From: a virus | Lineage: Duplodnaviria > Caudoviricetes | IMG/VR virus record: IMGVR_UViG_3300027790_000011 | Coordinates: 1 to 44,222 of that record | Strand: one strand, 5' to 3' | DNA: 44,222 nt | Shown here: piece after piece, positions 14,886 to 39,697 of the stretch | Position numbering within the stretch: position 1 is the first letter of the stretch | How the letters are laid out: each line of letters begins with the position of its first letter | Position numbers and translations under genes: made by a program | Notes under the pieces: model-generated | Told to the model about the DNA's origin: nothing | Databases searched by the model: none | What the model saw: the letters and a program-made list of their open reading frames with translations, nothing else

Positions 14886-16189
14886 TGGCTGGTGTTTTAC
14901 TCCCATTACCTCCCCCTTCCCCTGATTTGCAGGAATGGGCCGAGCAACTTGTACAAACAATACAGGATGCTATAGATTCAGGGGCGTTACTATCAGGATC
15001 TGCATCAGGCTTAGTGTTTGTTGATGACCAGGGCAGAACAATACTTGACTCATCCGGGCATTACGTGTATGACACGGGTGGTGACCCAGTGATAGCGGCA
15101 GACATTGTTAGTGTTGACACCAGTCACTTAGTTGATGCAGCGATCACAACAAATAAGCTAGCTACAGCCGCCGTAGATAACACAAAACTGGCTAACCTGG
15201 CTGTAGATGCAGCGAAGCTAGCAGACAGCGCAGTCACAAGCACGAAAATAGCTAATCTCGCCGTAGGCAGCGCTGCAATTGCTAACGCCGCTGTTGGTAC
15301 AGCGCATATTGCTAACGCAGCTATCACATCAGCCCTGATAAATGACCTGGCGGTGGTAACAGCAAAAATAGACGATCTGGCAGTTAACGATGTGAAAATA
15401 GCCAATGCTGCTATCACGTCTGCTAAGATACAAGACTTAGCTGTCACTAATGCAAAGATTGATAACGCCACGATCACAGGCGCAAAGATAGCTAATGCAA
15501 CAATAGGTACAGCGCAGATCACTAATGCTGCGATAACTACAGCGTTGATTAACGATTTAGCCGTTACAGATGCAAAGATAGCTAACTTGGCTGTCAGCAC
15601 AGCCAAGATCGCGGATGCGGCTATTACAAACGCTAAGATAGCGACCCTCGCAGTATCTTCGGCACAGATACAAGATGCCGCTATCACTAATGTCAAGATA
15701 GCTAATGCTGCTATCACAACAGCAAAAATAACGGATCTGAATGTAAGCACGCTGAAAATCGCCAACAACGCGGTAACAGTTCCGACTAGCGCTTACACTG
15801 TTGGTACCATAAGTGCTGCTGGTACAACAAGCACAACGTCGTGGAACGAGACAACTATACAGACAGTTGTCTTGAATGCCACGGACGCTAATTCTGTTGA
15901 TATCGACTTTGTTGCAAACATGGCAATTGACGGTACAGGGTACCACAGATACCGTATATATCGTGGGGGTACCGCAATCTGGGAGTGGAATAACCAGACA
16001 TCACTGGGTGCCGGGTTTTTCCCTAATCAACAGGGCGCTGGGGCGTTGCCTATTTCCATTAAAGATAATTCACCCGGTAGTGGGAACGTGACTTACACAA
16101 TGCGGTACGCAGCAAAGAATTCAGGGAGCGGCGCACAGGGCTGTGACTTCTCACACAGGTTCATGAGAGCTAACGCAAGTAAGAGATGA
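14885..16189 (+). CDS. Tail fibre with 10-aa repeats
   Basis: More than 20 tandem (I/V)TxAKIAN(A/L)A repeats followed by a C-terminal head domain. Confidence 0.75.
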   Translation: MAGVLLPLPPPSPDLQEWAEQLVQTIQDAIDSGALLSGSASGLVFVDDQGRTILDSSGHYVYDTGGDPVIAADIVSVDTSHLVDAAITTNKLATAAVDNTKLANLAVDAAKLADSAVTSTKIANLAVGSAAIANAAVGTAHIANAAITSALINDLAVVTAKIDDLAVNDVKIANAAITSAKIQDLAVTNAKIDNATITGAKIANATIGTAQITNAAITTALINDLAVTDAKIANLAVSTAKIADAAITNAKIATLAVSSAQIQDAAITNVKIANAAITTAKITDLNVSTLKIANNAVTVPTSAYTVGTISAAGTTSTTSWNETTIQTVVLNATDANSVDIDFVANMAIDGTGYHRYRIYRGGTAIWEWNNQTSLGAGFFPNQQGAGALPISIKDNSPGSGNVTYTMRYAAKNSGSGAQGCDFSHRFMRANASKR

Positions 16190-19522: not shown

Positions 19523-22168
19523 ATGGTTGAGGTTCAGACAGAGCAAGGTGATGTGTTTGAGTTCCAAGACGGAACCCCTGAAACAGAGATAGCTGAAGCA
19601 GTTGATGCGTACTATGCAGAACCAGCAAGGTCGGCTGCGGAAGTACATAAAACGTTCGGTGATCAGGTCTCTGATATCGTCCTAGAGGGTATGTCCTCCA
19701 TGAACAGGGGAGCTTTGTCTCTGTTCGATATACCACCTACATTGTTTAATGCTTTTTCAGATCTGGCTGGGAGTGATGTACGTGCGAGTAAGGTCACGGA
19801 GCTTCCGGGTATCAGGGAAGGTACGCAGGGGGGCTTTATGGAGGGTGGCACTGCTAGGGGAGCTGTCAGGATTGCAGGGGAAGTGTTAGGTGGCACAGCG
19901 TCCGCTGTTTCTGGCTTAGCAGCTAACGCTAACCGAGTGGCTAACACATCCCGGCAGGTGTTATCCCCCGCAGTGCGGGCCTTGCCATCTGGAAGTAAAA
20001 GCGCTGGCTTATCTCAGACAGAATCATTGCTACTAGACCCAAGTAAGGTGCTGGCGCGTGAGGCTCAGTCAGGTGCGTTGTTTGCAGCAGGCGCAGGTGG
20101 CGCATCACTGGTATCGGAAAACGATCCTGTGGCGGAGATAGCTGGCGGGCTACTGGCCGCAAGCCGAGGCGCGCCAGTCAGACTAGGCTCAAGTTTTGCA
20201 CGTGGCATTGGGCAAGCAGGTAAGCAGGCTTTTTCTAAGAAAGCTGCAAGGGATAGGGCGGTGATGTTCTTGAAGCAACACGCAGAAGATCCAGACCAGG
20301 CGATTAAGAACTTACGTCGTAGCCTATCCGCTAAGAAAACAGGAACCCTTGCGCAGCTCAGTGGCGATGAAGGTATTGCTGCTGTGGAGAACCGGCTTAT
20401 ATCATCGGCCCCGTCTGATATAGGGGCGAGGATAAGGATAAGCGATGATGCTGTAATGGATGACATTGTACGCGCTTATGACGATGTTGCAAACATTGGC
20501 AAGCAGGGGGAGGCGTCAGATTTCCTGAAGGCTCGGGTAAATAACAGCCTGCTAAAAATTAACAAAGTTGTGCAGAACGCCACTGATGAAGCTGCGTCTG
20601 TTTTGGAGAGAGCAGGGACGCCTCTTGAGACACCAGACGCTAGTTCCCGTCTGTTTGGGAAGATAGACGATGCGTTAACTGGAACACGGGCTATAGAGGA
20701 TGAGGCTTGGAGTAAAGTAGCCTCTGATTTGTTGACACCCACGAGTAACGTTAAAAAGGGGGTTCAGAGAGCACTGAACGCTTTAAGTGGGACCGGGCGG
20801 AGGGCAGTATCCCCAAAAATCGCCCGAGAATTAAAGCTTGTGGACTCGTTAGCGGATAACGTCCACCCGAAGGAGCTAGCTGACCTGCGTGGCGAGATAC
20901 TCTCAGCCAGCAGAGCTGCGCGAGACGCTAACGCAAGCGCTAATGTACTTAAAGTTCTGGATGATATGCAGAAATCTGTTCAAGAAGCACTGGATACCAC
21001 ATCTACTGCGTCATCGTACCGGGCGGCAGCCGCAGTAACTCGAAAAAAGCATGAGTTGTTTAATGACGGCTTGCTTGGGCGTATCAGGCGCGCCAAAGAC
21101 ACAGTCCCAGAGAACATAGGGGATAAGCTCCTGAGGACTGATGGGGTAGGCGGCTCATTAGCTGATGAAGTCACACGTATTGATTCTGAACTACAGGGGG
21201 GCTTAACCCCGGCCCTGGAGGACATGATTCGGGCAAGTTTTGGAAGAACAGTCGGTGAACAGGGTGTACTGAATGCTAATTTATCGCAGAAATTCCTTTC
21301 TCGGCACCAGACGCTACTGAGCCGTTTTCCTAAACTACGGGATGAGCTGGCAGACGCAACGCAGGCGCAGAAGCTTGTGGATCGAGTAACACAAGCAGGT
21401 GCAGCGCGTGCGCGGTATGTACAGAAATCTCGTGCGGCTTTGTACTCCGAGTTCAGCGATCATAAACGCGCTGTGCAGGGTGTATTAAGCACTAAAGACC
21501 CGGTGCGGGCCGTTAACAGCCTTGCAAGATCTGCTAGTAGAGACCCTACGGGGGGAGCAGCGCTTGGGCTAAAGCGGGATTTTGTAGAAAGTGTAATGGA
21601 GCGTATCCTTATCCCTACAGCTAAAGGTATCAAACCAACATCAAGCTACAAAAAAGAGTGGGGCAAATTACACAAAGTTCTATCTGAGACCGATCTCTTC
21701 TCAGAGAATGAGGTCAAGGCGCTTGACGGTATCGTTAAAGATATTGACAGATTGTTGATACGCAACCGTGTGCCGGGTATTAAAGAGAACCTGCAAGAGG
21801 ACGTTATAGCTCTCGCTCTTGGTCAAATCACAGGTGCAAGGATAGGCGCTAAGTTTGGTACTACGCCGTTGATTGCGGCTGGGCTAGGTCGGAAATTTGC
21901 CCAGAAGGTTCTGCAAAGGATGCCGCGAGATAGGACTATGGGTTTCGTGGAGGACATGATACTGAACCCGCAAAATTTTGATGAGTTTTCACAAGCTGTG
22001 AGCACTGCGAGCAACCAAGACCAGTTACTCAGCGCACTTAATGGTTGGGCATTACATGCGGGTGTGCGCCCTGTGACTGACAGCGAGCTGGCGGAAGTGC
22101 TCTCTGACGAGGTTGAGTTAAGCGTGAGTACAACGTTTGATACTGATACATCAGTCCCAGATCAGTAA
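19523..22168 (+). CDS. Large internal virion / DNA transfer protein (start revised to ATG 19523)
   Basis: FEFQDGTPETEI N-terminal motif; about 880 aa, Ala/Gly-rich; last late gene. Confidence 0.65.
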   Translation: MVEVQTEQGDVFEFQDGTPETEIAEAVDAYYAEPARSAAEVHKTFGDQVSDIVLEGMSSMNRGALSLFDIPPTLFNAFSDLAGSDVRASKVTELPGIREGTQGGFMEGGTARGAVRIAGEVLGGTASAVSGLAANANRVANTSRQVLSPAVRALPSGSKSAGLSQTESLLLDPSKVLAREAQSGALFAAGAGGASLVSENDPVAEIAGGLLAASRGAPVRLGSSFARGIGQAGKQAFSKKAARDRAVMFLKQHAEDPDQAIKNLRRSLSAKKTGTLAQLSGDEGIAAVENRLISSAPSDIGARIRISDDAVMDDIVRAYDDVANIGKQGEASDFLKARVNNSLLKINKVVQNATDEAASVLERAGTPLETPDASSRLFGKIDDALTGTRAIEDEAWSKVASDLLTPTSNVKKGVQRALNALSGTGRRAVSPKIARELKLVDSLADNVHPKELADLRGEILSASRAARDANASANVLKVLDDMQKSVQEALDTTSTASSYRAAAAVTRKKHELFNDGLLGRIRRAKDTVPENIGDKLLRTDGVGGSLADEVTRIDSELQGGLTPALEDMIRASFGRTVGEQGVLNANLSQKFLSRHQTLLSRFPKLRDELADATQAQKLVDRVTQAGAARARYVQKSRAALYSEFSDHKRAVQGVLSTKDPVRAVNSLARSASRDPTGGAALGLKRDFVESVMERILIPTAKGIKPTSSYKKEWGKLHKVLSETDLFSENEVKALDGIVKDIDRLLIRNRVPGIKENLQEDVIALALGQITGARIGAKFGTTPLIAAGLGRKFAQKVLQRMPRDRTMGFVEDMILNPQNFDEFSQAVSTASNQDQLLSALNGWALHAGVRPVTDSELAEVLSDEVELSVSTTFDTDTSVPDQ

Positions 22169-27674: not shown

Positions 27675-27683
27675 GCCCCGCCA

Positions 27684-28088
27684 TCACCCACCGGGGGGCA
27701 CGTCAGCCAAAACTGCCCGGTGAACAACAGAGCACTTAGGTATTGTCATATACCCACACCACTGCTCAGGGGCATCAACAGCGCTGTTCGCTGGGGAGAG
27801 GTGAGGGACGAGCACTATCACGTCCTGGTCTTCTTTCACTACCCACCCAACCGAAAAGCATTGGTGTGGGTGTAGCTTTATTGTACTAGTCTCAGCCCAA
27901 TCAGCGCCAACCCCGTAAATATCTTTCCACTCTAGGTACACAAGTTGGTAATGACTGACGGGTGATATCCCACCCCGTCTGTAAGCTTTTTCAACCATTT
28001 CATCAATGTAGGTTGCCGTTGGTTCTGTCATTGCTAATCGCCCCCCGCTTTCAGTGGCAACTTTCTTGCGTTGCGTTATTTCATTCAT
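27684..28088 (-). CDS. Hypothetical protein
   Basis: VYLEWKD...CFSVGWVV...IPKCSV phage-type motif. Confidence 0.55.
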   Translation of the reverse strand: MNEITQRKKVATESGGRLAMTEPTATYIDEMVEKAYRRGGISPVSHYQLVYLEWKDIYGVGADWAETSTIKLHPHQCFSVGWVVKEDQDVIVLVPHLSPANSAVDAPEQWCGYMTIPKCSVVHRAVLADVPPGG

Positions 28089-28112
28089 TTCCGCTCTCCG
28101 TTTACCGCGTGG

Positions 28113-28451
28113 TTAGAGGTATTCAAACTCGATCCTGTTCACAGTCGCGTCAGGATTAACTTTGTAGTGGTCAACCAGCATTTGAATGAACTCTGCGGGC
28201 GTCCATTCTGGAAATCCTTCTTTAATCACATCGTCCTGAGTAATTGCGTTCAGCGGTTCCGCCGTAGTGGAAACAATACGCAACATCGCCAGCGGTTTGA
28301 TCTTCTCGCCCTTTTTTAGGCCCATTGCCTTCTCGACCCCGCGCACTTTGTCACCGGGTTTGAGGAACCACCAACCAAAGCGGCGCGTTACAGTCTTGGT
28401 CTGCGCTCTAATCTGGTCAGTGGTCATTGCAAAACTCATGTTTCGTGCCAT
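28113..28451 (-). CDS. ASCH/PUA-like domain protein (cassette ORF); in frame with the upstream ssb fragment
   Basis: NMSFAMT..QI...TKTVTRR.GW..LKPGD...EGF...RIEFEY; own GAGG RBS before ATG 28451. Confidence 0.75.
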
Positions 28452-28479
28452 ACGTACCTCTAACAAGAAAATTAAGGCG

Positions 28480-28697
28480 GAGCGCAAATACTCGCCCGCA
28501 ATCTCCGCCAGGCGATTAAAAAATATCACCCGGTGCCACTCAGTGCGCTCCTGCGGCTGCCCGGTTTGCTTATCCTTCCAGGTCTCGCTGGTCGCTACCG
28601 AGATATTTGCCACCTGGCCACCGCTCGGCATAAAACGAGTCTCAGGGTCCTGCCCCAGATTGCCGATCAAAATGACTTTGTTGATTCCCCTGGCCAT
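28480..28697 (-). pseudogene. ssb: 5' fragment (about 72 codons) of a bacterial-type ssb
   Basis: [19 protein letters not shown]...TEWHRV...AEIAGEYLR, after which SSB similarity ends abruptly. Confidence 0.85.
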
Positions 28698-28722
28698 ATT
28701 GTTTACCTGTTTATTTTTCCAG

Positions 28723-28780
28723 CACTAACCGGATGCGTTGCGGCAGACCGCTAACGCGGCTGCCGAACTTATTGTTAGGC
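28723..28780 (+). other. attC site 1
   Basis: CACTAAC...GTT(G)CGGCAG(A)CCGC-TAAC-GCGGCTGCCGAAC-TTATT-GTTAGGC. Confidence 0.8.
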
Positions 28781-29512
28781 CGCACTAATCCGGACTTGTG
28801 CAATCTTGAAATATTGCTCATCGAGTTCTATCCCAATGAATGAGCGGTTAAGGTTCTTGCAAGCCACGCCAGTAGTTCCACTGCCCATTGTGAAATCTAA
28901 AACCGTCTCGCCTTCGTTGGTGTAGGTTTTGATCAGGTACTCCATTAGGGCTACCGGCTTCTGAGTTGGGTGATAGCCTCTTCCTTCGCGGCAGTTAAAT
29001 CGTATCTGGCTAGTCGGGTACTTTTCATTATAAGTCTTGCCTGCCTCACCAAAAGCCTTGGATGCCTCGGTTACAGCTATCGGAATCGCCTTGCTTTGCT
29101 TGTTCCCGCCTTTCTTTATGGCCTTGTCGCGCTTTACCATTTGAGGGAAGTAATTTGGTTGCTTACCTGTTTTTGTAAAGACCAAAACATCTTCGTGGTC
29201 TTTCAGTGGCTGACGTTTTGCTTGAACGAAGTTTGCGGCAAAGCACTTATCCCAAACCCAACAAAAGGCGAATCCGCCCATATTGCTAGATATCAGTGTC
29301 GTTGTGAACGGCTGGCTTGCAGTCATCACAATAGCCCCATTAGGCTTAATCACCCGTTTCAACTGCTCCCACATTGGCTCTAACGGGATAATCGAATCCC
29401 ACTTGCAGGCCGTTGTCCCATAAGGCGGATCAGCAAGCACCATGTCCACGGCCCCGGCTTCAATGCCTTGAAGTAGCTCAAGGCAATCGCCACGCATTAG
29501 TCGAATCGTCAT
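28775..29512 (-). CDS. DNA N6-adenine/N4-cytosine methyltransferase (beta class), cassette ORF
   Basis: DPPY catalytic motif precedes HPTQKP and LDFTMGSGTT. Confidence 0.92.
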   Translation of the reverse strand: MTIRLMRGDCLELLQGIEAGAVDMVLADPPYGTTACKWDSIIPLEPMWEQLKRVIKPNGAIVMTASQPFTTTLISSNMGGFAFCWVWDKCFAANFVQAKRQPLKDHEDVLVFTKTGKQPNYFPQMVKRDKAIKKGGNKQSKAIPIAVTEASKAFGEAGKTYNEKYPTSQIRFNCREGRGYHPTQKPVALMEYLIKTYTNEGETVLDFTMGSGTTGVACKNLNRSFIGIELDEQYFKIAQVRISAA

Positions 29513-29537
29513 GTATTCATAGTCCTGTGCTGGTGCG

Positions 29538-29597
29538 GCCTAACAAGGCAATCTAGCGGACAACAAAAAGCGTTGCCGCTAATCGCTGGCGTTATGC
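29538..29597 (+). other. attC site 2
   Basis: GCCTAAC-AAGGC-AAT(C)TAGCGG(A)CAAC..GTTGCCGCTAAT..GTTATGC. Confidence 0.88.
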
Positions 29598-29906
29598 CTC
29601 TAGTGGCTCAAATAGAACCTCATCCAACTCCCACCAAGCCGCAATCTCCACCATGCCAAACTCCCCCCTCTGTTCTGGGTTATATGTGGCTAGGTATAAA
29701 TAATCCCCAGCCCCCTTAGAGAACGCATCTACGTAAGTTTCATCAGGGTTTTCTAAAAAATCATTTACAATGTCATCTAGTGTGTCAGCAGTAAAATGCC
29801 CGTCTACACCACAAATGAACGCTTCATCTTCACCGTTATAAAAAAACTGAACGTAGTTCTTGCCGCGCTTAGTGGGCATAACAATGCTATCAATCGGATT
29901 GCTCAT
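29592..29906 (-). CDS. Hypothetical acidic protein, cassette ORF
   Basis: GAGGAGG RBS and ATG lie inside attC3; stop at the TTA of the core site. Confidence 0.7.
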   Translation of the reverse strand: MSNPIDSIVMPTKRGKNYVQFFYNGEDEAFICGVDGHFTADTLDDIVNDFLENPDETYVDAFSKGAGDYLYLATYNPEQRGEFGMVEIAAWWELDEVLFEPLEA

Positions 29907-29950
29907 TCGTCGTTCCTCCTCATTCTCAACCGCTTATAGCGGGGTTATAC
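29876..29950 (+). other. attC site 3
   Basis: GCATAAC-AATGC-TAT(C)AATCGG(A)TTG...CAACCGCTTATAGC-GGG-GTTATAC. Confidence 0.85.
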
Positions 29951-30160
29951 GTCAACTTCGTAATCCGGCTCATCAACAAAATATAGGCATCTAGGTAACA
30001 GTGTTATTGCATCTAGCTTGCTATCTATCTGAAACATATTATTTCCACGCACAATAATACCATCGAGCTGTGTCACTAGCCGATCGCCTTCTTGCCACAC
30101 AAAAACCGGCAGCTTGTCCCATTGCTTTGTATGCAGCGTTATCGCCTCGCTCTTTTTCAT
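29945..30160 (-). CDS. Hypothetical protein, cassette ORF (start revised to MKKSE)
   Basis: GGAG RBS 8 nt upstream; stop at the core site. Confidence 0.6.
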   Translation of the reverse strand: MKKSEAITLHTKQWDKLPVFVWQEGDRLVTQLDGIIVRGNNMFQIDSKLDAITLLPRCLYFVDEPDYEVDV

Positions 30161-30185
30161 ATTCATCACTCCGTAGTTAGTAGCC

Positions 30186-30247
30186 GTATAACAAGGCATT
30201 CGTTTGGACGAGTAAAGAGCACTCGCCACACAATTTAATCGTTAGGC
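30186..30247 (+). other. attC site 4
   Basis: GTATAAC-AAGGC-ATT(C)GTTTGG(A)CGAGT..ACTCGCCACACAAT..GTTAGGC. Confidence 0.85.
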
Positions 30248-30520
30248 GTCTGCTTTTTCCAGCTCGAACGCGGTGCATGTTGGCTGACCGTCGGAATCGA
30301 TAATCCACTCTCTTGGATATTCTGCATCATTGGTATCGAACGCCATCGTTAGGCCAATAATTTCACAACCACCAGAATATGTTTTTGGGTCTAAATTGTC
30401 GTGTTTACACTTAGAGCAAAATGCTGACATGAAAATTTCGCCCTCAGTACCATTGCTTGGGCGATACGATTCTCCGGCGCGTTCTTTCATTCTTTCTGCC
30501 ATGCTGTCTACATGGATCAT
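30242..30520 (-). CDS. Cys-containing hypothetical protein, cassette ORF
   Basis: YRPSNGTEG..F...FCSKC...C.I...EW....GQPTCTAF; GGAG RBS. Confidence 0.7.
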   Translation of the reverse strand: MIHVDSMAERMKERAGESYRPSNGTEGEIFMSAFCSKCKHDNLDPKTYSGGCEIIGLTMAFDTNDAEYPREWIIDSDGQPTCTAFELEKADA

Positions 30521-30533
30521 CTCAATCTCCCGC

Positions 30534-30590
30534 GCCTAACAAGGCGCTCAATCCGACGCACTACGTGCGCGGCTTAGCTTTGGGTTATAC
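30534..30590 (+). other. attC site 5 (aadA-like)
   Basis: GCCTAAC-AAGGC-GCT(C)AATCCG(A)CGCAC-TAC-GTGCGCGGCTTAGC-TTTGG-GTTATAC. Confidence 0.92.
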
Positions 30591-31148
30591 CCACTGCTCA
30601 ACTATGGCAGCAGCCACGCCATCAAAAGTTTTGCTACGGTCGCGCTTGCGTGTTTCGCTTGGAGGCATCTTCCATATCCTTTGCTCTCGCCCCTCTACAA
30701 CGTTGGTGGGCTTCAACGGCTCCAGGTTGTGCAGCGCAAATCCTGTTTTCTTTGTTTCACCGTGCCCATGTTCCCACGGCTGAATGTAATGCACGTTCGG
30801 CAGCTCTTTGAAAATCACACTTACTGGGTTTTCTAATGCAACCTTGTTCGCGTGTTTCTTCGCCAGTTCCCAAAGCTGTTTAGTCCATTCAACTTGGGTC
30901 AACCGCTTGTCGTGCATCGGCATCCCCTCCCCGTACCACCGATTACCACTAACAGCCATCGCGGTGCAGTCTGGGTGCAGAATGATTAAATCCCAATACC
31001 GCGTAGGTATCACTTCCATAATATCCTGCTGGTAATGCCAGTCAGGGTTGCCGCGTGTAGGTTGCAGGTCACAGCTATAAGCCACAAAACCCGCATTCCT
31101 GAAAGCCTTTGTTATCGTCTGGCTTTCTTCGCATCCTACTAAAATCAT
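30585..31148 (-). CDS. DNA cytosine methyltransferase-like protein, cassette ORF (start revised to MILVG)
   Basis: LVGCEES, SCDL, HPDCT (motif IV-like), ENP (motif VI) and RSKTF motifs; GGAGG RBS. Confidence 0.7.
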   Translation of the reverse strand: MILVGCEESQTITKAFRNAGFVAYSCDLQPTRGNPDWHYQQDIMEVIPTRYWDLIILHPDCTAMAVSGNRWYGEGMPMHDKRLTQVEWTKQLWELAKKHANKVALENPVSVIFKELPNVHYIQPWEHGHGETKKTGFALHNLEPLKPTNVVEGREQRIWKMPPSETRKRDRSKTFDGVAAAIVEQWV

Positions 31149-31172
31149 AATCCCCTCCAATGTGCAAAGTGG

Positions 31173-31225
31173 GTATAACAAAGCAATCAACGGGACGTTC
31201 CGCCCGTTATCGCGTGTGGTTAGCT
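31173..31225 (+). other. attC site 6
   Basis: GTATAAC-AAAGC-AAT(C)AACGGG(A)CG-TTC-CGCCCGTTAT..GTTAGCT. Confidence 0.85.
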
Positions 31226-31495
31226 GCCGTATTCACCGTCGTGGTAATACTGCTGAAAATAACGTTTTGCTTCGCGTTCAGAGCCCTCCAACGTCGGAGC
31301 GTCAACGCTCCACAGCCCCTTTTTGCACTTAATGGAAACCCGGTCACCTTCATCAATGGTCGTAGTATTTTCTGCATATGCCTGATCAACCCTGCTTAGT
31401 GTCATGGCTCGGTGTTGTGCCTCTTTATCAGCCGCTAGATACTCCCGCTCTTGTATATCTAATGAAGCTTTTGAAATCTTAGCTAACCGTCTCAT
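31220..31495 (-). CDS. Hypothetical protein, cassette-derived ORF
   Basis: Bounded by GTTAGCT (31219) and AGCTAAC (31481); ATGA overlap with the exonuclease stop. Confidence 0.6.
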   Translation of the reverse strand: MRRLAKISKASLDIQEREYLAADKEAQHRAMTLSRVDQAYAENTTTIDEGDRVSIKCKKGLWSVDAPTLEGSEREAKRYFQQYYHDGEYGS

Positions 31496-32370
31496 TGCTC
31501 ACTCCCCGCCATAAACTCTGCGTAGGTTTTGTTGTACGTCTGCTCAAGGGGCTTACGCAGCATCCACAGCAGCATAGCATTCCTCTCGAACACATCTTCC
31601 ATACCGTTCTCTTTGTATACTTGTAGTACTTTTTGTTTACACTCTTTCCCAGATAACCCATGCAGTAGTTTTTCAGCGGTAACATCGCCGACCCTCGGCA
31701 CTCCGGGTATGTCATCTGCTGAGTCCCCGGTTAACATCTGTTTCCAGAAGCTGTTCAATCCCTCCTCCTCGGTGATATACCACACCTCTCCCTTGCTCCA
31801 ACTGTACCTCCACCCAGGTACCATGTCCAGGTCTTTATCAATCGTACAGATAATGCTGGGTGTACCACGTTTAGCTGCGTTACATTGCTCAATAGCTACC
31901 GCATCATCGGCCTCTATCTCGTGGTGTACCACCGCTCCCCAGTGCTTAATTAAGTAATCTTCAACAGTTGGCAAATGGTACGGTTTAGGCGTATCCATGC
32001 GGCTGTGTTTATATTCAGGGTACACACCGAACCGGAAACACTTACCACGTGTTAAGTGTACTTGGTATGATGTAGCACCAGACGCCTTCAGTATACCTTC
32101 CAGCATCCTCTTTACTGTGAATCGACAATAAGTATCCGGCTCAGGTACCACTAACTCGGTGTACTCCCCCGGAAGTTGCTCTAGAACGGCTTTCTTTTGG
32201 AACACACCTGGAACCACATTGGTTACACCATTAGACAGCGCTGTCACCTGCATCCCCTGCTTAACTTTCTTAATACTGAACTGCTCGCCGTCCTCGTCCT
32301 GGTACACAGTCTTCTGGCAAGCGAAGCCGCAGGCGTACTTCAGTATGTCGGCATCAATCTGGGCGTGCAT
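31492..32370 (-). CDS. 5'-3' exonuclease (T7 gp6 / RNase H-like; start revised to MHAQIDAD)
   Basis: IDAD, YKHSR, EADD, IDKDL and GDSADDIPGV..VG..TA motifs. Confidence 0.9.
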   Translation of the reverse strand: MHAQIDADILKYACGFACQKTVYQDEDGEQFSIKKVKQGMQVTALSNGVTNVVPGVFQKKAVLEQLPGEYTELVVPEPDTYCRFTVKRMLEGILKASGATSYQVHLTRGKCFRFGVYPEYKHSRMDTPKPYHLPTVEDYLIKHWGAVVHHEIEADDAVAIEQCNAAKRGTPSIICTIDKDLDMVPGWRYSWSKGEVWYITEEEGLNSFWKQMLTGDSADDIPGVPRVGDVTAEKLLHGLSGKECKQKVLQVYKENGMEDVFERNAMLLWMLRKPLEQTYNKTYAEFMAGSEQ

Positions 32371-32557
32371 TATAACCCCGTACGCTTTCACCTCTGAACC
32401 CGCAGTTAGGTGCGCGAAGGTCGGCGAGACTGATAGGTAGGCGCATCTCGTTAGCCCTGTCGCGCTCCTCGTCCGTGAGGAACCTGTAACAGTCACGGTT
32501 AAAACACTCACCGCGAAAGCTGCGTAAGCAGAAAGCGCGGTCTTTGTAGCAAATCAT
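32354..32557 (-). CDS. Small Cys-rich hypothetical protein
   Basis: MICYKDRAFC...C...C.R. Confidence 0.55.
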   Translation of the reverse strand: MICYKDRAFCLRSFRGECFNRDCYRFLTDEERDRANEMRLPISLADLRAPNCGFRGESVRGYNARPD

Positions 32558-32561
32558 GTCA

Positions 32562-33089
32562 TCACCACGGAATGTCGTCGTCAAACTCAGGCGCGGGGCT
32601 TGATTGCGCTGGCGTAGCGGCTGGTGCTGGTGCAGCTTGCGGCTGCGGCATAGGCTGCGGCATAGGCTGCGGCATAGGCTGTGCCGCTGGTTGTGCTGTT
32701 TTACTGGCAGTGTAGTTCGCCACTACAGCTTCAGATCGCTCAGTGATTCGTTTAACTAACTCGAACAACACATCAAGGTCTTTCCCTTCCTCGCCAAGGA
32801 TGGTTGCGGCTACTAATATGTTATGCCCGATAATAGGGCCATACTTGTCAACAGGGTCTTTTTTGTAGCCACCCCGCCTACCGCCTGAGCTGCCGCTGTA
32901 CGACTGCCCTGGCGTGATCTGTAATTGTTCAGCGTACAAGCGCCCGTCATTGGCTTGGGTAGCCACAAATGTTACTGAATCGCCCCTCTTGGGGCACTGG
33001 CTACCTTCTGGGATGTTGTACCACTGCTCATTTATTTTAAATCCTGAGCCGTTGCGGTTAGCGGCCTGTACCTTACCTGTTACATTCAT
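32562..33089 (-). CDS. Putative phage single-stranded DNA-binding protein
   Basis: OB-like N-terminus, (QPMP)3 linker, acidic EFDDDIPW tail; between polymerase and exonuclease. Confidence 0.65.
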   Translation of the reverse strand: MNVTGKVQAANRNGSGFKINEQWYNIPEGSQCPKRGDSVTFVATQANDGRLYAEQLQITPGQSYSGSSGGRRGGYKKDPVDKYGPIIGHNILVAATILGEEGKDLDVLFELVKRITERSEAVVANYTASKTAQPAAQPMPQPMPQPMPQPQAAPAPAATPAQSSPAPEFDDDIPW

Positions 33090-37932: not shown

Positions 37933-38169
37933 TTATACGCTTGCTTTCGGTTTTGGTCTGTCATCTGCTTTGTTAATGGCGTCGATCACGCAGTATTTGC
38001 AGAAATCGCCGTCGTTCCAGCTGCTGTCTTTGGCCGTTATAACCTGTACGCGCAGCATTACAGGGCCGCCAGGCTTTCTTATTTCGCCTTGCAGCCGGTG
38101 GTTGTCACCGTCGATCCGGTTAGCATCGGTAATCTCGTCACCGCAACAGTCGCAATATCGTTTAATCAT
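37933..38169 (-). CDS. Zn-finger-like hypothetical protein
   Basis: CDCCG...DFCKYC. Confidence 0.6.
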   Translation of the reverse strand: MIKRYCDCCGDEITDANRIDGDNHRLQGEIRKPGGPVMLRVQVITAKDSSWNDGDFCKYCVIDAINKADDRPKPKASV

Positions 38170-38619: not shown

Positions 38620-38667
38620 ATCTGTCTCCAGTTAAAGAACGCAACATTGCGGCAGCCGAGCTTGGTG

Positions 38668-39003
38668 TTAGGGTGCAAAGTAATACCGTTTTTGCACCGC
38701 TCTTAAAATCTGTCGGTCTATCGGCAGCCAATCTATGTACGGATAGCTGTAATGCCATTTGTGCCAGTCTTCCCATTCGTCACTATCAATGTCAGGCTCG
38801 TTTTCGCAATCAATATCAATCTCGCTTGCTATCCAGTCGCCGTTATCCTCCTGTTCACAAGCGTTGACGCCGGTAATTAGCAACTGTCCGCCACAAATAG
38901 GGCACCGAGGATTCTTCAGCTTCAACGGCAGCTTGTCTTCTGGCCAAGGCACCCTAACAAGGGTTTCAACCGGATTCGTCATTCCGCTATTCGTTTCACT
39001 CAT
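38668..39003 (-). CDS. Zn-ribbon-like hypothetical protein, cassette ORF
   Basis: CPICGGQL motif; stop at the GTTA core site; start inside the attC. Confidence 0.65.
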   Translation of the reverse strand: MSETNSGMTNPVETLVRVPWPEDKLPLKLKNPRCPICGGQLLITGVNACEQEDNGDWIASEIDIDCENEPDIDSDEWEDWHKWHYSYPYIDWLPIDRQILRAVQKRYYFAP

Positions 39004-39184
39004 TGCTCCATTCCTCTCCGGTTAAAGCCGGGCTGGCTGTGTAGCCTATCAAAGCACCCGGCGGCAGCTCTGCTTTTTTCTCGGCAGCTTGCACGCAAGG
39101 GCAAGAGGTAACCCGCTTCCGATGGGCGGTGAGGCCGTCGAGTGAGTAGGTTAGGGTGTAGTCGTAGAGTCTTTGCTGTTGCAT
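38996..39184 (-). CDS. Hypothetical protein (paralogue of 41721-41912)
   Basis: RLYDYTLTYS...CPCVQAA...IGYTASP. Confidence 0.6.
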   Translation of the reverse strand: MQQQRLYDYTLTYSLDGLTAHRKRVTSCPCVQAAEKKAELPPGALIGYTASPALTGEEWSNE

Positions 39185-39202: not shown

Positions 39203-39253
39203 CTATAACATAGCGTTGTATCGTAAGCGCGACCGATGAACTTAGTGTTATCT
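39203..39253 (+). other. Short attC-like site
   Basis: CTATAAC-ATAGC-GTT(G)TATCG...CGATGAAC-TTAGT-GTTATCT. Confidence 0.65.
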
Positions 39254-39256
39254 GCC

Positions 39257-39697
39257 TTATTCTTCATCACCAAAATCTTCATCAGGCCAACCGCAATCTT
39301 CGCAATACGGGCCACCTTCTCTAGGGATTTTTAGCCCTGTAGGGCTTTCACACTGTGGGCAAAACCCTGATCTAATCGCGAACTGAATCGCCCACTCATC
39401 ATTCGGTAGCGCTTTTGCTATTGCCTTGCCAGCTTCGTACCACTCCCATCCATCAATCGCCGGTAAAGTTTCAGCGCCAACGTAATCACGAGTAAGGCAA
39501 ATGGATTTTAAGGCGGTAGATAACAAGGCGGTCGGGCAGACTGCTTGCCTCGGTGTTTCATCGTTGTCTTTAAGTTCGTCATTTTCAGTGATTCCGCCCA
39601 TAATATTATCCTCCACTGGGGCTGGCTCATCATCGCAAATACAAGCCATGCCTTTTCTTTCGCCTTGGTCACAGATTCCACATTCACCAAAAAGCAT
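39257..39697 (-). CDS. Hypothetical protein with C-terminal Zn ribbon, cassette-derived; alternative start at 39601
   Basis: CPQC...CEDCG; GGAGG before MGGITEN. Confidence 0.55.
   Translation of the reverse strand: MLFGECGICDQGERKGMACICDDEPAPVEDNIMGGITENDELKDNDETPRQAVCPTALLSTALKSICLTRDYVGAETLPAIDGWEWYEAGKAIAKALPNDEWAIQFAIRSGFCPQCESPTGLKIPREGGPYCEDCGWPDEDFGDEE

Follow-up and report, generated by a model that had tools for sequence, protein, structure and literature searches.

Why would a phage carry integron cassettes whose genes run against their own recombination sites, and which enzyme would exchange them? Both questions are raised by positions 28113 to 31495 of the virus record IMGVR_UViG_3300027790_000011 (Duplodnaviria; Caudoviricetes), a complete record with terminal repeats that was analyzed over its full 44,222 nucleotides (nt) and is called the window here. 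The array at this locus comprises six attC sites on the plus strand and seven genes on the minus strand. We consider it quite probable that these are phage-adapted integron cassettes with genes on the attC bottom strand, co-directional with the early and replication genes, and likely exchanged by an integron integrase from outside. A broader reading is also probable in our view, if somewhat less firmly so: tailed phages would run integrons of their own. Several lineages of phage integron integrase (IntI), encoded where the early operon ends and often immediately ahead of the phage integrase, would capture reversed cassettes from a pool specific to phages. This pool would be read from the array's far end and exchanged among temperate and lytic phages, with gene polarity alone keeping it separate from host pools.

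The phage that hosts the array is T7-like. Its plus strand carries terminase, portal, and capsid genes up to position 22168, and its minus strand encodes, from 43231 to 22227, a primase-helicase, family A polymerase, exonuclease, endonuclease VII, and ribonucleotide reductase, with the array placed between the exonuclease and endonuclease VII genes. A TIGR02249 profile search of the window genome (G000) gave no integron integrase, and the window had no match in Rfam. The locus differs from a complete integron, which has intI and attI beside the array: intI is absent, and the left boundary is the right half of an attC-like site (28099..28118, +) with an L'-like box, a spacer, and the R' core G|TTAGAG, its G at 28112. 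With two or more attC sites on the same strand inside 4 kb and intI absent, it is a cluster of attC sites lacking integron integrases (CALIN) as defined in the accessible text of PMC4889954. We conclude that the window array is a real CALIN of reversed, mobile cassettes.

Polarity of the sites and movement of the units

To assign a strand to the sites, we used a covariance model made from the top strands of 54 bacterial attC sites anchored by intI, so that polarity was fixed independently of gene direction; one of the 54 was later traced to a prophage, L324, which is described below. All six window sites score on the plus strand: 29538..29597 with 55 bits, 30534..30590 with 53.4, 30186..30247 with 50.7, 29876..29950 with 27.7, 28723..28780 with 25.7, and 31173..31225, the last attC of the array, with 24.7. 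The best minus-strand match reached 14.9 bits. A preliminary description of this DNA had taken plus to be the attC top strand and every cassette gene to be antisense to it, and had proposed comparing the strand of model matches with that of the genes; the comparison bears out both statements, with all six sites on plus, all seven array open reading frames (ORFs) on minus, and no preference of the model for minus. Canonical cassettes, by contrast, carry their ORF on the top strand, readable from the Pc promoter.

The anatomy of the sites points the same way. All six form the R''-L''-loop-L'-R' hairpin with AAC/GTT cores, and five of them have, on the left arm of the plus strand, the canonical additional C at L'' position 4 and, deeper inside, an additional A. 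According to the accessible text of PMC2727003, it is the bottom strand of attC that recombines, cut in R', with the strand choice set by the extra L'' base. The preliminary description had claimed the extra bases for all six sites, which holds in canonical form for five; site 28723..28780 is irregular, with a 7-nt R''-L'' spacer. By eye its extra bases, G and then A, are also on the plus left arm, a fixed-spacer L-box test favored minus (4.4 versus 3.0 on plus), our structure-based detector missed the site, and the covariance model gives plus 25.7 bits against 14.9 for a partial minus match. In eight Markov-resampled windows, the detector produced 13 matches at a score of at least 9 and none at 11 or above, compared with five matches of 9.1–11.4 within 1.7 kb and on one strand in the real window.

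The genes are tied to the sites at both of their ends. As had been described, the TAA stops coincide with the TTA of GTTA at 28113, 28775, 29592, 29945, 30242, 30585, 31220, and 38668, the last belonging to a second cluster. TAAC ends are found in all seven array ORFs, in 2 of 28 other minus-strand genes (one being that at 38668), and in 2 of 27 plus-strand genes. The R' and R'' cores of the seven units, taken from left to right and leaving out the truncated ssb unit, are complementary over 10, 12, 8, 8, 8, 12, and 7 nt, and over 10 nt for the unit at 38667, which is the range described for cassettes in the accessible text of PMC2727003. The ORFs starting at 29906 and 39003 have their ribosome-binding site (RBS) and start codon inside the loop of the attC on their right; each attC therefore belongs to the ORF on its left, as the plus polarity requires. 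Five homologues of the ORF starting at 29906 share its body, beginning at the core, and diverge in the leader.

Natural relatives of the array show which unit moves. Junctions were taken from contigs of 8 of 24 listed sequencing runs (likeness 85 and 93; run X1, possibly the source, not counted). In run X12, positions 28774-29595, the unit of the first methyltransferase, occur with 0 differences and with foreign flanks on both sides, and in run X9 the unit 29591-29948 recurs with one difference and another continuation. Pieces in runs X2, X4, and X5 start at 28112, 29591, 28773, 29944, and 30584, and both X4 and X5 have pieces starting at 29944. Runs X2 and X8, from two studies, join 28773 to 28112 across 5 shared letters, which is either the ssb unit placed before cassette 1, the reverse of the window order, or a circle. 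In run X9, 28108 is joined to 31216 across 8 shared letters; this is an empty site, with the whole array absent. The crossover at G|TT of R' is seen in junctions of X2, X8, X9, and X12. The moving unit thus consists of G|TT, the reversed gene, R'', the attC body, and G; the crossover accordingly lies in the right core, and minus is the bottom strand.

The same contigs bear on whether an integrase is needed at all. Shuffling could have come about mainly by homologous or microhomology recombination with the attC repeats as linkers, leaving IntI a minor part in this phage. The absence of intI fits this explanation, and microhomology is visible: in run X2 a 3828-nt block (27676-31503) is missing between 9-nt repeats, a 7-nt repeat lies at the ssb fusion described below, and contigs of X8 and X9 break at 31444-31451 (X9 also at 28042). 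At its outer ends, the block seems to have been shaped by microhomology events. The cassette junctions, however, have no more than the GTTA/GTTAG core in common (5 letters at 28773/28112; pieces ending at 29595 and at 29948), the six sites differ too much for homology, and the cores of each unit are still complementary over 8–12 nt. We therefore regard recombination through homology as an unlikely source of the cassette order and prefer exchange by an integron integrase.

A mirror-image attC with a recombinogenic plus strand would turn these cassettes into functionally ordinary ones. Read on minus, a start after GTT and a stop in TAAC do resemble an ordinary cassette, and site 28723 was ambiguous in one test. 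This is contradicted by the plus polarity in the covariance model, by natural breaks at the right core with the attC body traveling with the ORF on its left, and by ORF starts inside that attC. It is further contradicted by a bench assay. In phage PH101, plus is the top strand of the sites at 75919 and 76529, and each of the 16 annotated genes in their surroundings lies on minus, with short unannotated plus-strand ORFs also present in that stretch. In the accessible text of Qi et al. (2023; PMC9892861), bottom strands of the phage attC sites tested, PH101 included, recombined better than top strands. As the PH101 array is reversed, this assay amounts to a strand test of a reversed array, and its outcome matches the polarity deduced here; we consider a mirror-image attC very improbable.

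Phage-borne integron integrases and the host-storage question

The preliminary description overlooked what is likely the engine of such arrays, namely phage integron integrases encoded downstream of, and co-directional with, the reversed cassettes. L324 is a lambdoid prophage with tRNA-Phe, a phage integrase, intI, an attI-like core about 50 nt before intI, and five reversed cassettes, beyond which lie genes for a cytosine methyltransferase (Dcm), cI, cro, O, terminase, portal, capsid, and sheath. Its IntI led to four viral relatives, and their alignment to 184 matches, the best 80 of which were kept; the counts below cover 83 loci. All five seed IntI proteins match TIGR02249, the first at 394 bits against a cut-off of 265, and the IntI-specific insertion and the catalytic residues R-K-H-R-H-Y are visible in an alignment.

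Upstream of viral intI, 107 of 118 distinct units are antisense, 3 are sense, and 8 have no ORF. Counted by locus, 41 of the 83 are antisense, 1 is sense, 3 are tied, and 38 have no attC. The covariance model gave 118 matches in 65 of these loci, 115 of them on the strand opposite intI; in an inverted-integrase integron, intI would instead be co-oriented with attC. Among another 216 viral loci, clustered sites contributed 46 antisense and 3 sense units and 7 without ORF. The proposal that inverted cassettes form a distinct class is supported, and the arrangement recurs in phages. In other phages, an intact intI lies downstream of units of the same type. A conserved attI-like core precedes it by 29-61 nt in 14 of 16 members of the L324 clade, and in 12 of these 14 the core complements a downstream R'' over 8-10 nt. 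Cassettes, attI-like core, intI, and often a phage integrase form one co-directional run; of 11 viral loci checked, 8 have a phage integrase as the next large gene after intI, and in one a terminase gene follows directly. Up to 44 of the 107 antisense ORFs start inside attC under a longest-ORF rule.

Some of the window array's cargo also has homologues at these loci. The 92-aa (amino acid) cassette protein (30242..30520) has homologues in the phage IntI loci L374 and L352, and the 187-aa methyltransferase (30585..31148) has a 55% homologue directly before intI in L417 and a 77% homologue that shares a contig with a phage IntI (L217 and L350 are two ends of that contig). Among 102 scanned ORFs, 40 had recognizable cargo, which includes methyltransferase, Lar-like, PAPS reductase, and radical SAM families. 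In an unrooted IntI tree of 132 proteins, which carries no direction of transfer, the phage enzymes with reversed arrays fall into several groups, one of 21 being nested among bacterial proteins; the viral proteins of L365 and L413, which have sense units, adjoin bacterial ones. Separately, we observed a terminase gene instead of an integrase gene after intI in L350 and L373, where the platform can thus precede late genes too, and, in a layout unlike the rest of the viral set, three attC matches downstream of intI on the same strand in L388 (7453-8821).

It had also been suggested that host arrays might store phage genes harmlessly. The bacterial reference set comprised 301 genomes of one class, 116 with intI (four genomes marked unpublished enter only this tally), from which 60 stretches beside intI were chosen for upstream room, not randomly. 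The detector found chains of sites in 45 of the 60, and for 248 of 257 sites its call agreed with the intI-defined polarity; Shewanella M16-3 arrays and three sites of phage TJE1 were also oriented as expected. Bacterial integrons provided 240 distinct units: 197 sense, 70 of which stop in R'', 13 antisense (4 in prophage L324), and 30 without ORF. Outside L324, 9 of 206 ORF-bearing units were called antisense, several of which are other things on reading of the sequence, such as an antitoxin-toxin pair, a regulator before a methyltransferase, and a reverse transcriptase. The contrast of 107:3 in viral with 9:197 in bacterial units gives a Fisher p of 4e-69, a value that is overstated since related phages are not independent.

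Host arrays might be the main reservoir, in which phage genes are parked reversed and silent until phages regain them. That a reversed cassette is silent behind a host Pc would follow from the geometry. The window sites score well with the bacterial attC model, so host IntI would likely accept them. Nine units were called antisense, and a partial candidate for a reversed cassette in a host array is L331 (1210-1783), an integron of bacterial type whose first cassette pairs a short ORF in sense orientation with a convergent antisense one exiting attC. Against this, none of the nine antisense bacterial units (45 arrays, one class) combines a GTTA-core stop with a 7-nt core match, the full pattern present in 26 of 107 phage units, and a GTDB-wide scan for the signature of an attC bottom strand followed by RBS and ATG returned 14 matches with one full inverted cassette, which sits in a prophage fragment. 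Storage of reversed phage cassettes in host arrays is possible and finds little support in this sample; as the main reservoir, host arrays are quite unlikely. Nor does it seem credible that ordinary host cassettes were inserted backwards by rare top-strand recombination, although the accessible texts of PMC2727003 and PMC9892861 do record top strands recombining at a low rate. By its mechanism, backward insertion would flip a gene along with its attC and leave their relative orientation unchanged, and the cargo is of phage type, with PHROG matches in 14 of 40 antisense phage ORFs versus 5 of 40 bacterial sense ORFs.

In the reading we prefer, an integron of the phage, the arrangement would arise as follows. 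It is established that cassettes inserted at attI by IntI have their top strand pointing away from intI. With intI at the end of a phage early operon and read from the early transcript, attI would keep its normal geometry; the transcript would cross the array from the far end, so that only bottom-strand genes are read and the newest cassette lands last. Reading from the far end would select and maintain a phage pool of inverted cassettes with methyltransferases, ssb, and small early genes, and it would explain the reversed genes on normal sites, the short distance from attI to intI, and the shift of RBS and starts into the attC loop. The T7-like window phage may have taken a block of this pool, probably by microhomology recombination at the outer ends. 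In its leftward operon such an orphan block would need the same polarity, and it would be reshuffled only when an IntI of the host or a co-resident prophage is present. Since the phage genes from 22227 to 43231 run on minus, the cassettes would, by a sound inference, be expressed from the leftward transcript. A promoter and terminator scan of the array gave nothing decisive (21 promoter-like matches versus 14 ± 3.8 in shuffles).

Several points weigh against this reading. Recombination by phage IntI and expression of the cassettes are activities predicted from sequence, and the window genome has no intI of its own. The viral IntI set was drawn from five seeds that already had reversed arrays, its related phages are not independent, and many of the 38 loci without attC have less than 500 nt upstream. 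Gene strand was called by our own classifier, which is correct for 79-100% of 60-codon pieces. A GTTA-core stop occurs in 38 of the 107 antisense viral ORFs and is hence no rule; 26 of these 38 have a core match of at least 7 nt. Not all phage clusters are reversed, that of TJE1 being canonical and those of L032 and L435 mixed, and most of the 56 viral homologues of the cassette 1 ORF have no attC. Each natural junction is one contig per run, and letters between the two sides of a joint are possible.

Two of the mixed clusters deserve separate mention. In L032 (3900-4400), a homologue of cassette 1 has an attC of normal polarity behind its stop and maybe a site of opposite polarity before its start, with 11-nt complementary cores; it is possibly an intermediate between sense and reversed cassettes. 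Virus Rctr41k (L435, KX853513.1; 4680-9434) has an IntI-like gene annotated as xerD with long attC-like sites of both polarities downstream.

If the proposed system exists, phages would have a site-specific means to swap methyltransferases, restriction-alleviation genes, and other early genes, and a mechanism could be named for part of the mosaicism of phage genomes. Gene polarity would serve as an address label, a host cassette being silent in a phage platform and a phage cassette silent behind Pc. How cassettes are made is a long-open question; because cassettes occur in both polarities on the same attC design, models of their origin must allow attC at either end of the gene.

Individual units and the second cluster

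Cassette 1 encodes a 112-aa protein (28113..28451, −) with its RBS within the R'' core. No Pfam or PHROG family matched this putative ASCH/PUA-like protein. Its attC, a seventh site of the array that the preliminary description passed over along with the second cluster of sites, is broken: the left arm (28458..28488, +) ends in a deletion at the 7-nt microhomology 28482-28488, where the 5' half of an ssb cassette gene begins (28482..28697, −; PF00436 on residues 5-75). The two genes form an in-frame 194-aa fusion ORF (28113-28697). Contigs of runs X2 and X8 depart from the window at 28482-28488 into long other sequence, and an X8 contig runs on from 28488 into a complete attC right arm, the intact form of the cassette 1 site. 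Since ssb also extends beyond 28482 in X8, where this attC is whole, the 194-aa ssb fusion results from a local deletion at the 7-nt repeat. The fusion may yield an OB-fold fusion protein besides the separate 112-aa protein with its own RBS. The attC of the ssb cassette is the irregular site 28723..28780.

The units that follow are a 245-aa N6/N4 DNA methyltransferase (28775..29512, −; PF01555, phrog_67); a 104-aa ORF of unassigned function (29592..29906, −), whose RBS and first ATG lie in the long loop of its own attC (29876..29950); an ORF of about 72 aa, also of unassigned function (29945..30166, −), which is open from 30229 and whose RBS suggests a start at 30160 or 30166; the 92-aa protein of 30242..30520 (−), a phage family of unassigned function (phrog_13210, phrog_6074); and the 187-aa protein of 30585..31148 (−), of a phage DNA methyltransferase family (phrog_757). 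The terminal 91-aa ORF (31220..31495, −) stops in GTTA of the last R' core and has its 7-nt complement at 31481-31487 with no attC body; it is likely chimeric, changing origin at 31444-31451, where the X8 and X9 contigs break.

The second cluster (38667..39046, +) consists of an R' core at 38667 and an antisense ORF (38668-39003) that begins inside a decayed attC (38952-39046; 11.3 bits, below significance). A weak attC follows (39203..39253, +; 17.2 bits, E 0.12; detector 7.6 on plus versus 4.4 on minus), directly upstream of the antisense ORF 38996-39184. Another core pair, complementary over 7 nt, occurs at 39247-39524, where the attC-like left arm at 39518 is traversed by a minus-strand ORF of 146 aa, and ORF 37933-38169 likewise stops in GTTA. 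To the left of the array, an ORF at 27684-28088 (−) has its RBS and start in the apparent loop of the half site 28099-28118, and X9 sequence changes at 28042. At 27675, an X8 contig goes on into another GTTA core, so the cassettes adjoining the endonuclease VII start seem to differ among relatives. Elsewhere, most of the exonuclease gene (31610-32818) is skipped in an X8 contig, and repeats spaced by 60 nt lie inside a structural gene at 15129-15766 (+).

Other searches added little. Against isolated phages, blastn of the array gave 301 records, and the 40 listed all match through the methyltransferase; one attC site had a single, irrelevant blastn match among plasmids. A search with the exonuclease for close relatives found 2 distant loci, the 104-aa ORF met only a contig identical in that ORF in metagenomes, and the cassette DNA had no match in 2 genomes of the order of genome G235. 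Two leads were discarded: 101 of 122 motif-scan matches in viral contigs lack a full attC by the detector and are mostly chance, and an attI-like motif that matched 85 of 401 genomes looks like chance as well.

Relation to known integrons

Integrons are usually seen as bacterial tools and lately as stores of anti-phage genes. The window array represents a variant of the integron that appears to be new and is most likely part of a phage-borne integron system. Phage attC clusters themselves are already published (Qi et al., 2023), and the intact phage IntI platform and the natural junctions are added here; in the open literature of PubMed Central and bioRxiv, surveyed by titles and abstract starts with subscription journals mostly uncovered, reversed cassettes or a phage IntI platform were not described beyond that study. 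The CALINs of Qi et al. (PMC9892861) resemble ours in their attC cluster without intI, their methyltransferase cargo, and the bottom-strand preference in the assay. In the main text as accessible, gene inversion goes unmentioned and the PH101 array is called typical, while the figures and annotation file may show the strands; complete phage integrons are described there as pieces of host integrons. According to the same accessible text, recombination of the folded bottom strand by IntI was obtained at the bench for PH101, TJE1, and one P12002L site, and attC1 of P12002L, which looks reversed by eye, failed the assay. We found five sites on minus and genes on plus in ctTUS972, which is clearly reversed like PH101, and no site by model or detector in jenny 12G5, H188, 3/49, and Chronis, which are also on the list of Qi et al.

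The inverted-integrase integrons of Treponema and others, as described in the accessible text of Cury et al. (2016; PMC4889954), share with the phage platform that intI and cassette genes are read the same way. The platform has in common with sedentary and class 1 integrons the anatomy and polarity of attC, complementary cores, the crossover at G|TT, and, for 115 of 118 matches, the canonical orientation of attC with respect to intI. Bacterial arrays are known to contain occasional reversed cassettes, e.g., toxin-antitoxin pairs with their own promoter, in which the gene is likewise antisense to attC; one was seen in our bacterial set. Those cassettes are isolated among sense ones, whereas here the arrays are reversed throughout and own promoters are not prominent. 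Compared with sedentary and class 1 integrons, the genes of phage cassettes are carried by the bottom strand, with their stops facing R' and their starts at or within their own attC. In the phage platform, 29-61 nt separate the attI-like core from intI, as opposed to a rough median of 229 nt in bacterial integrons, and expression in the phage would come from a promoter beyond the array instead of Pc.

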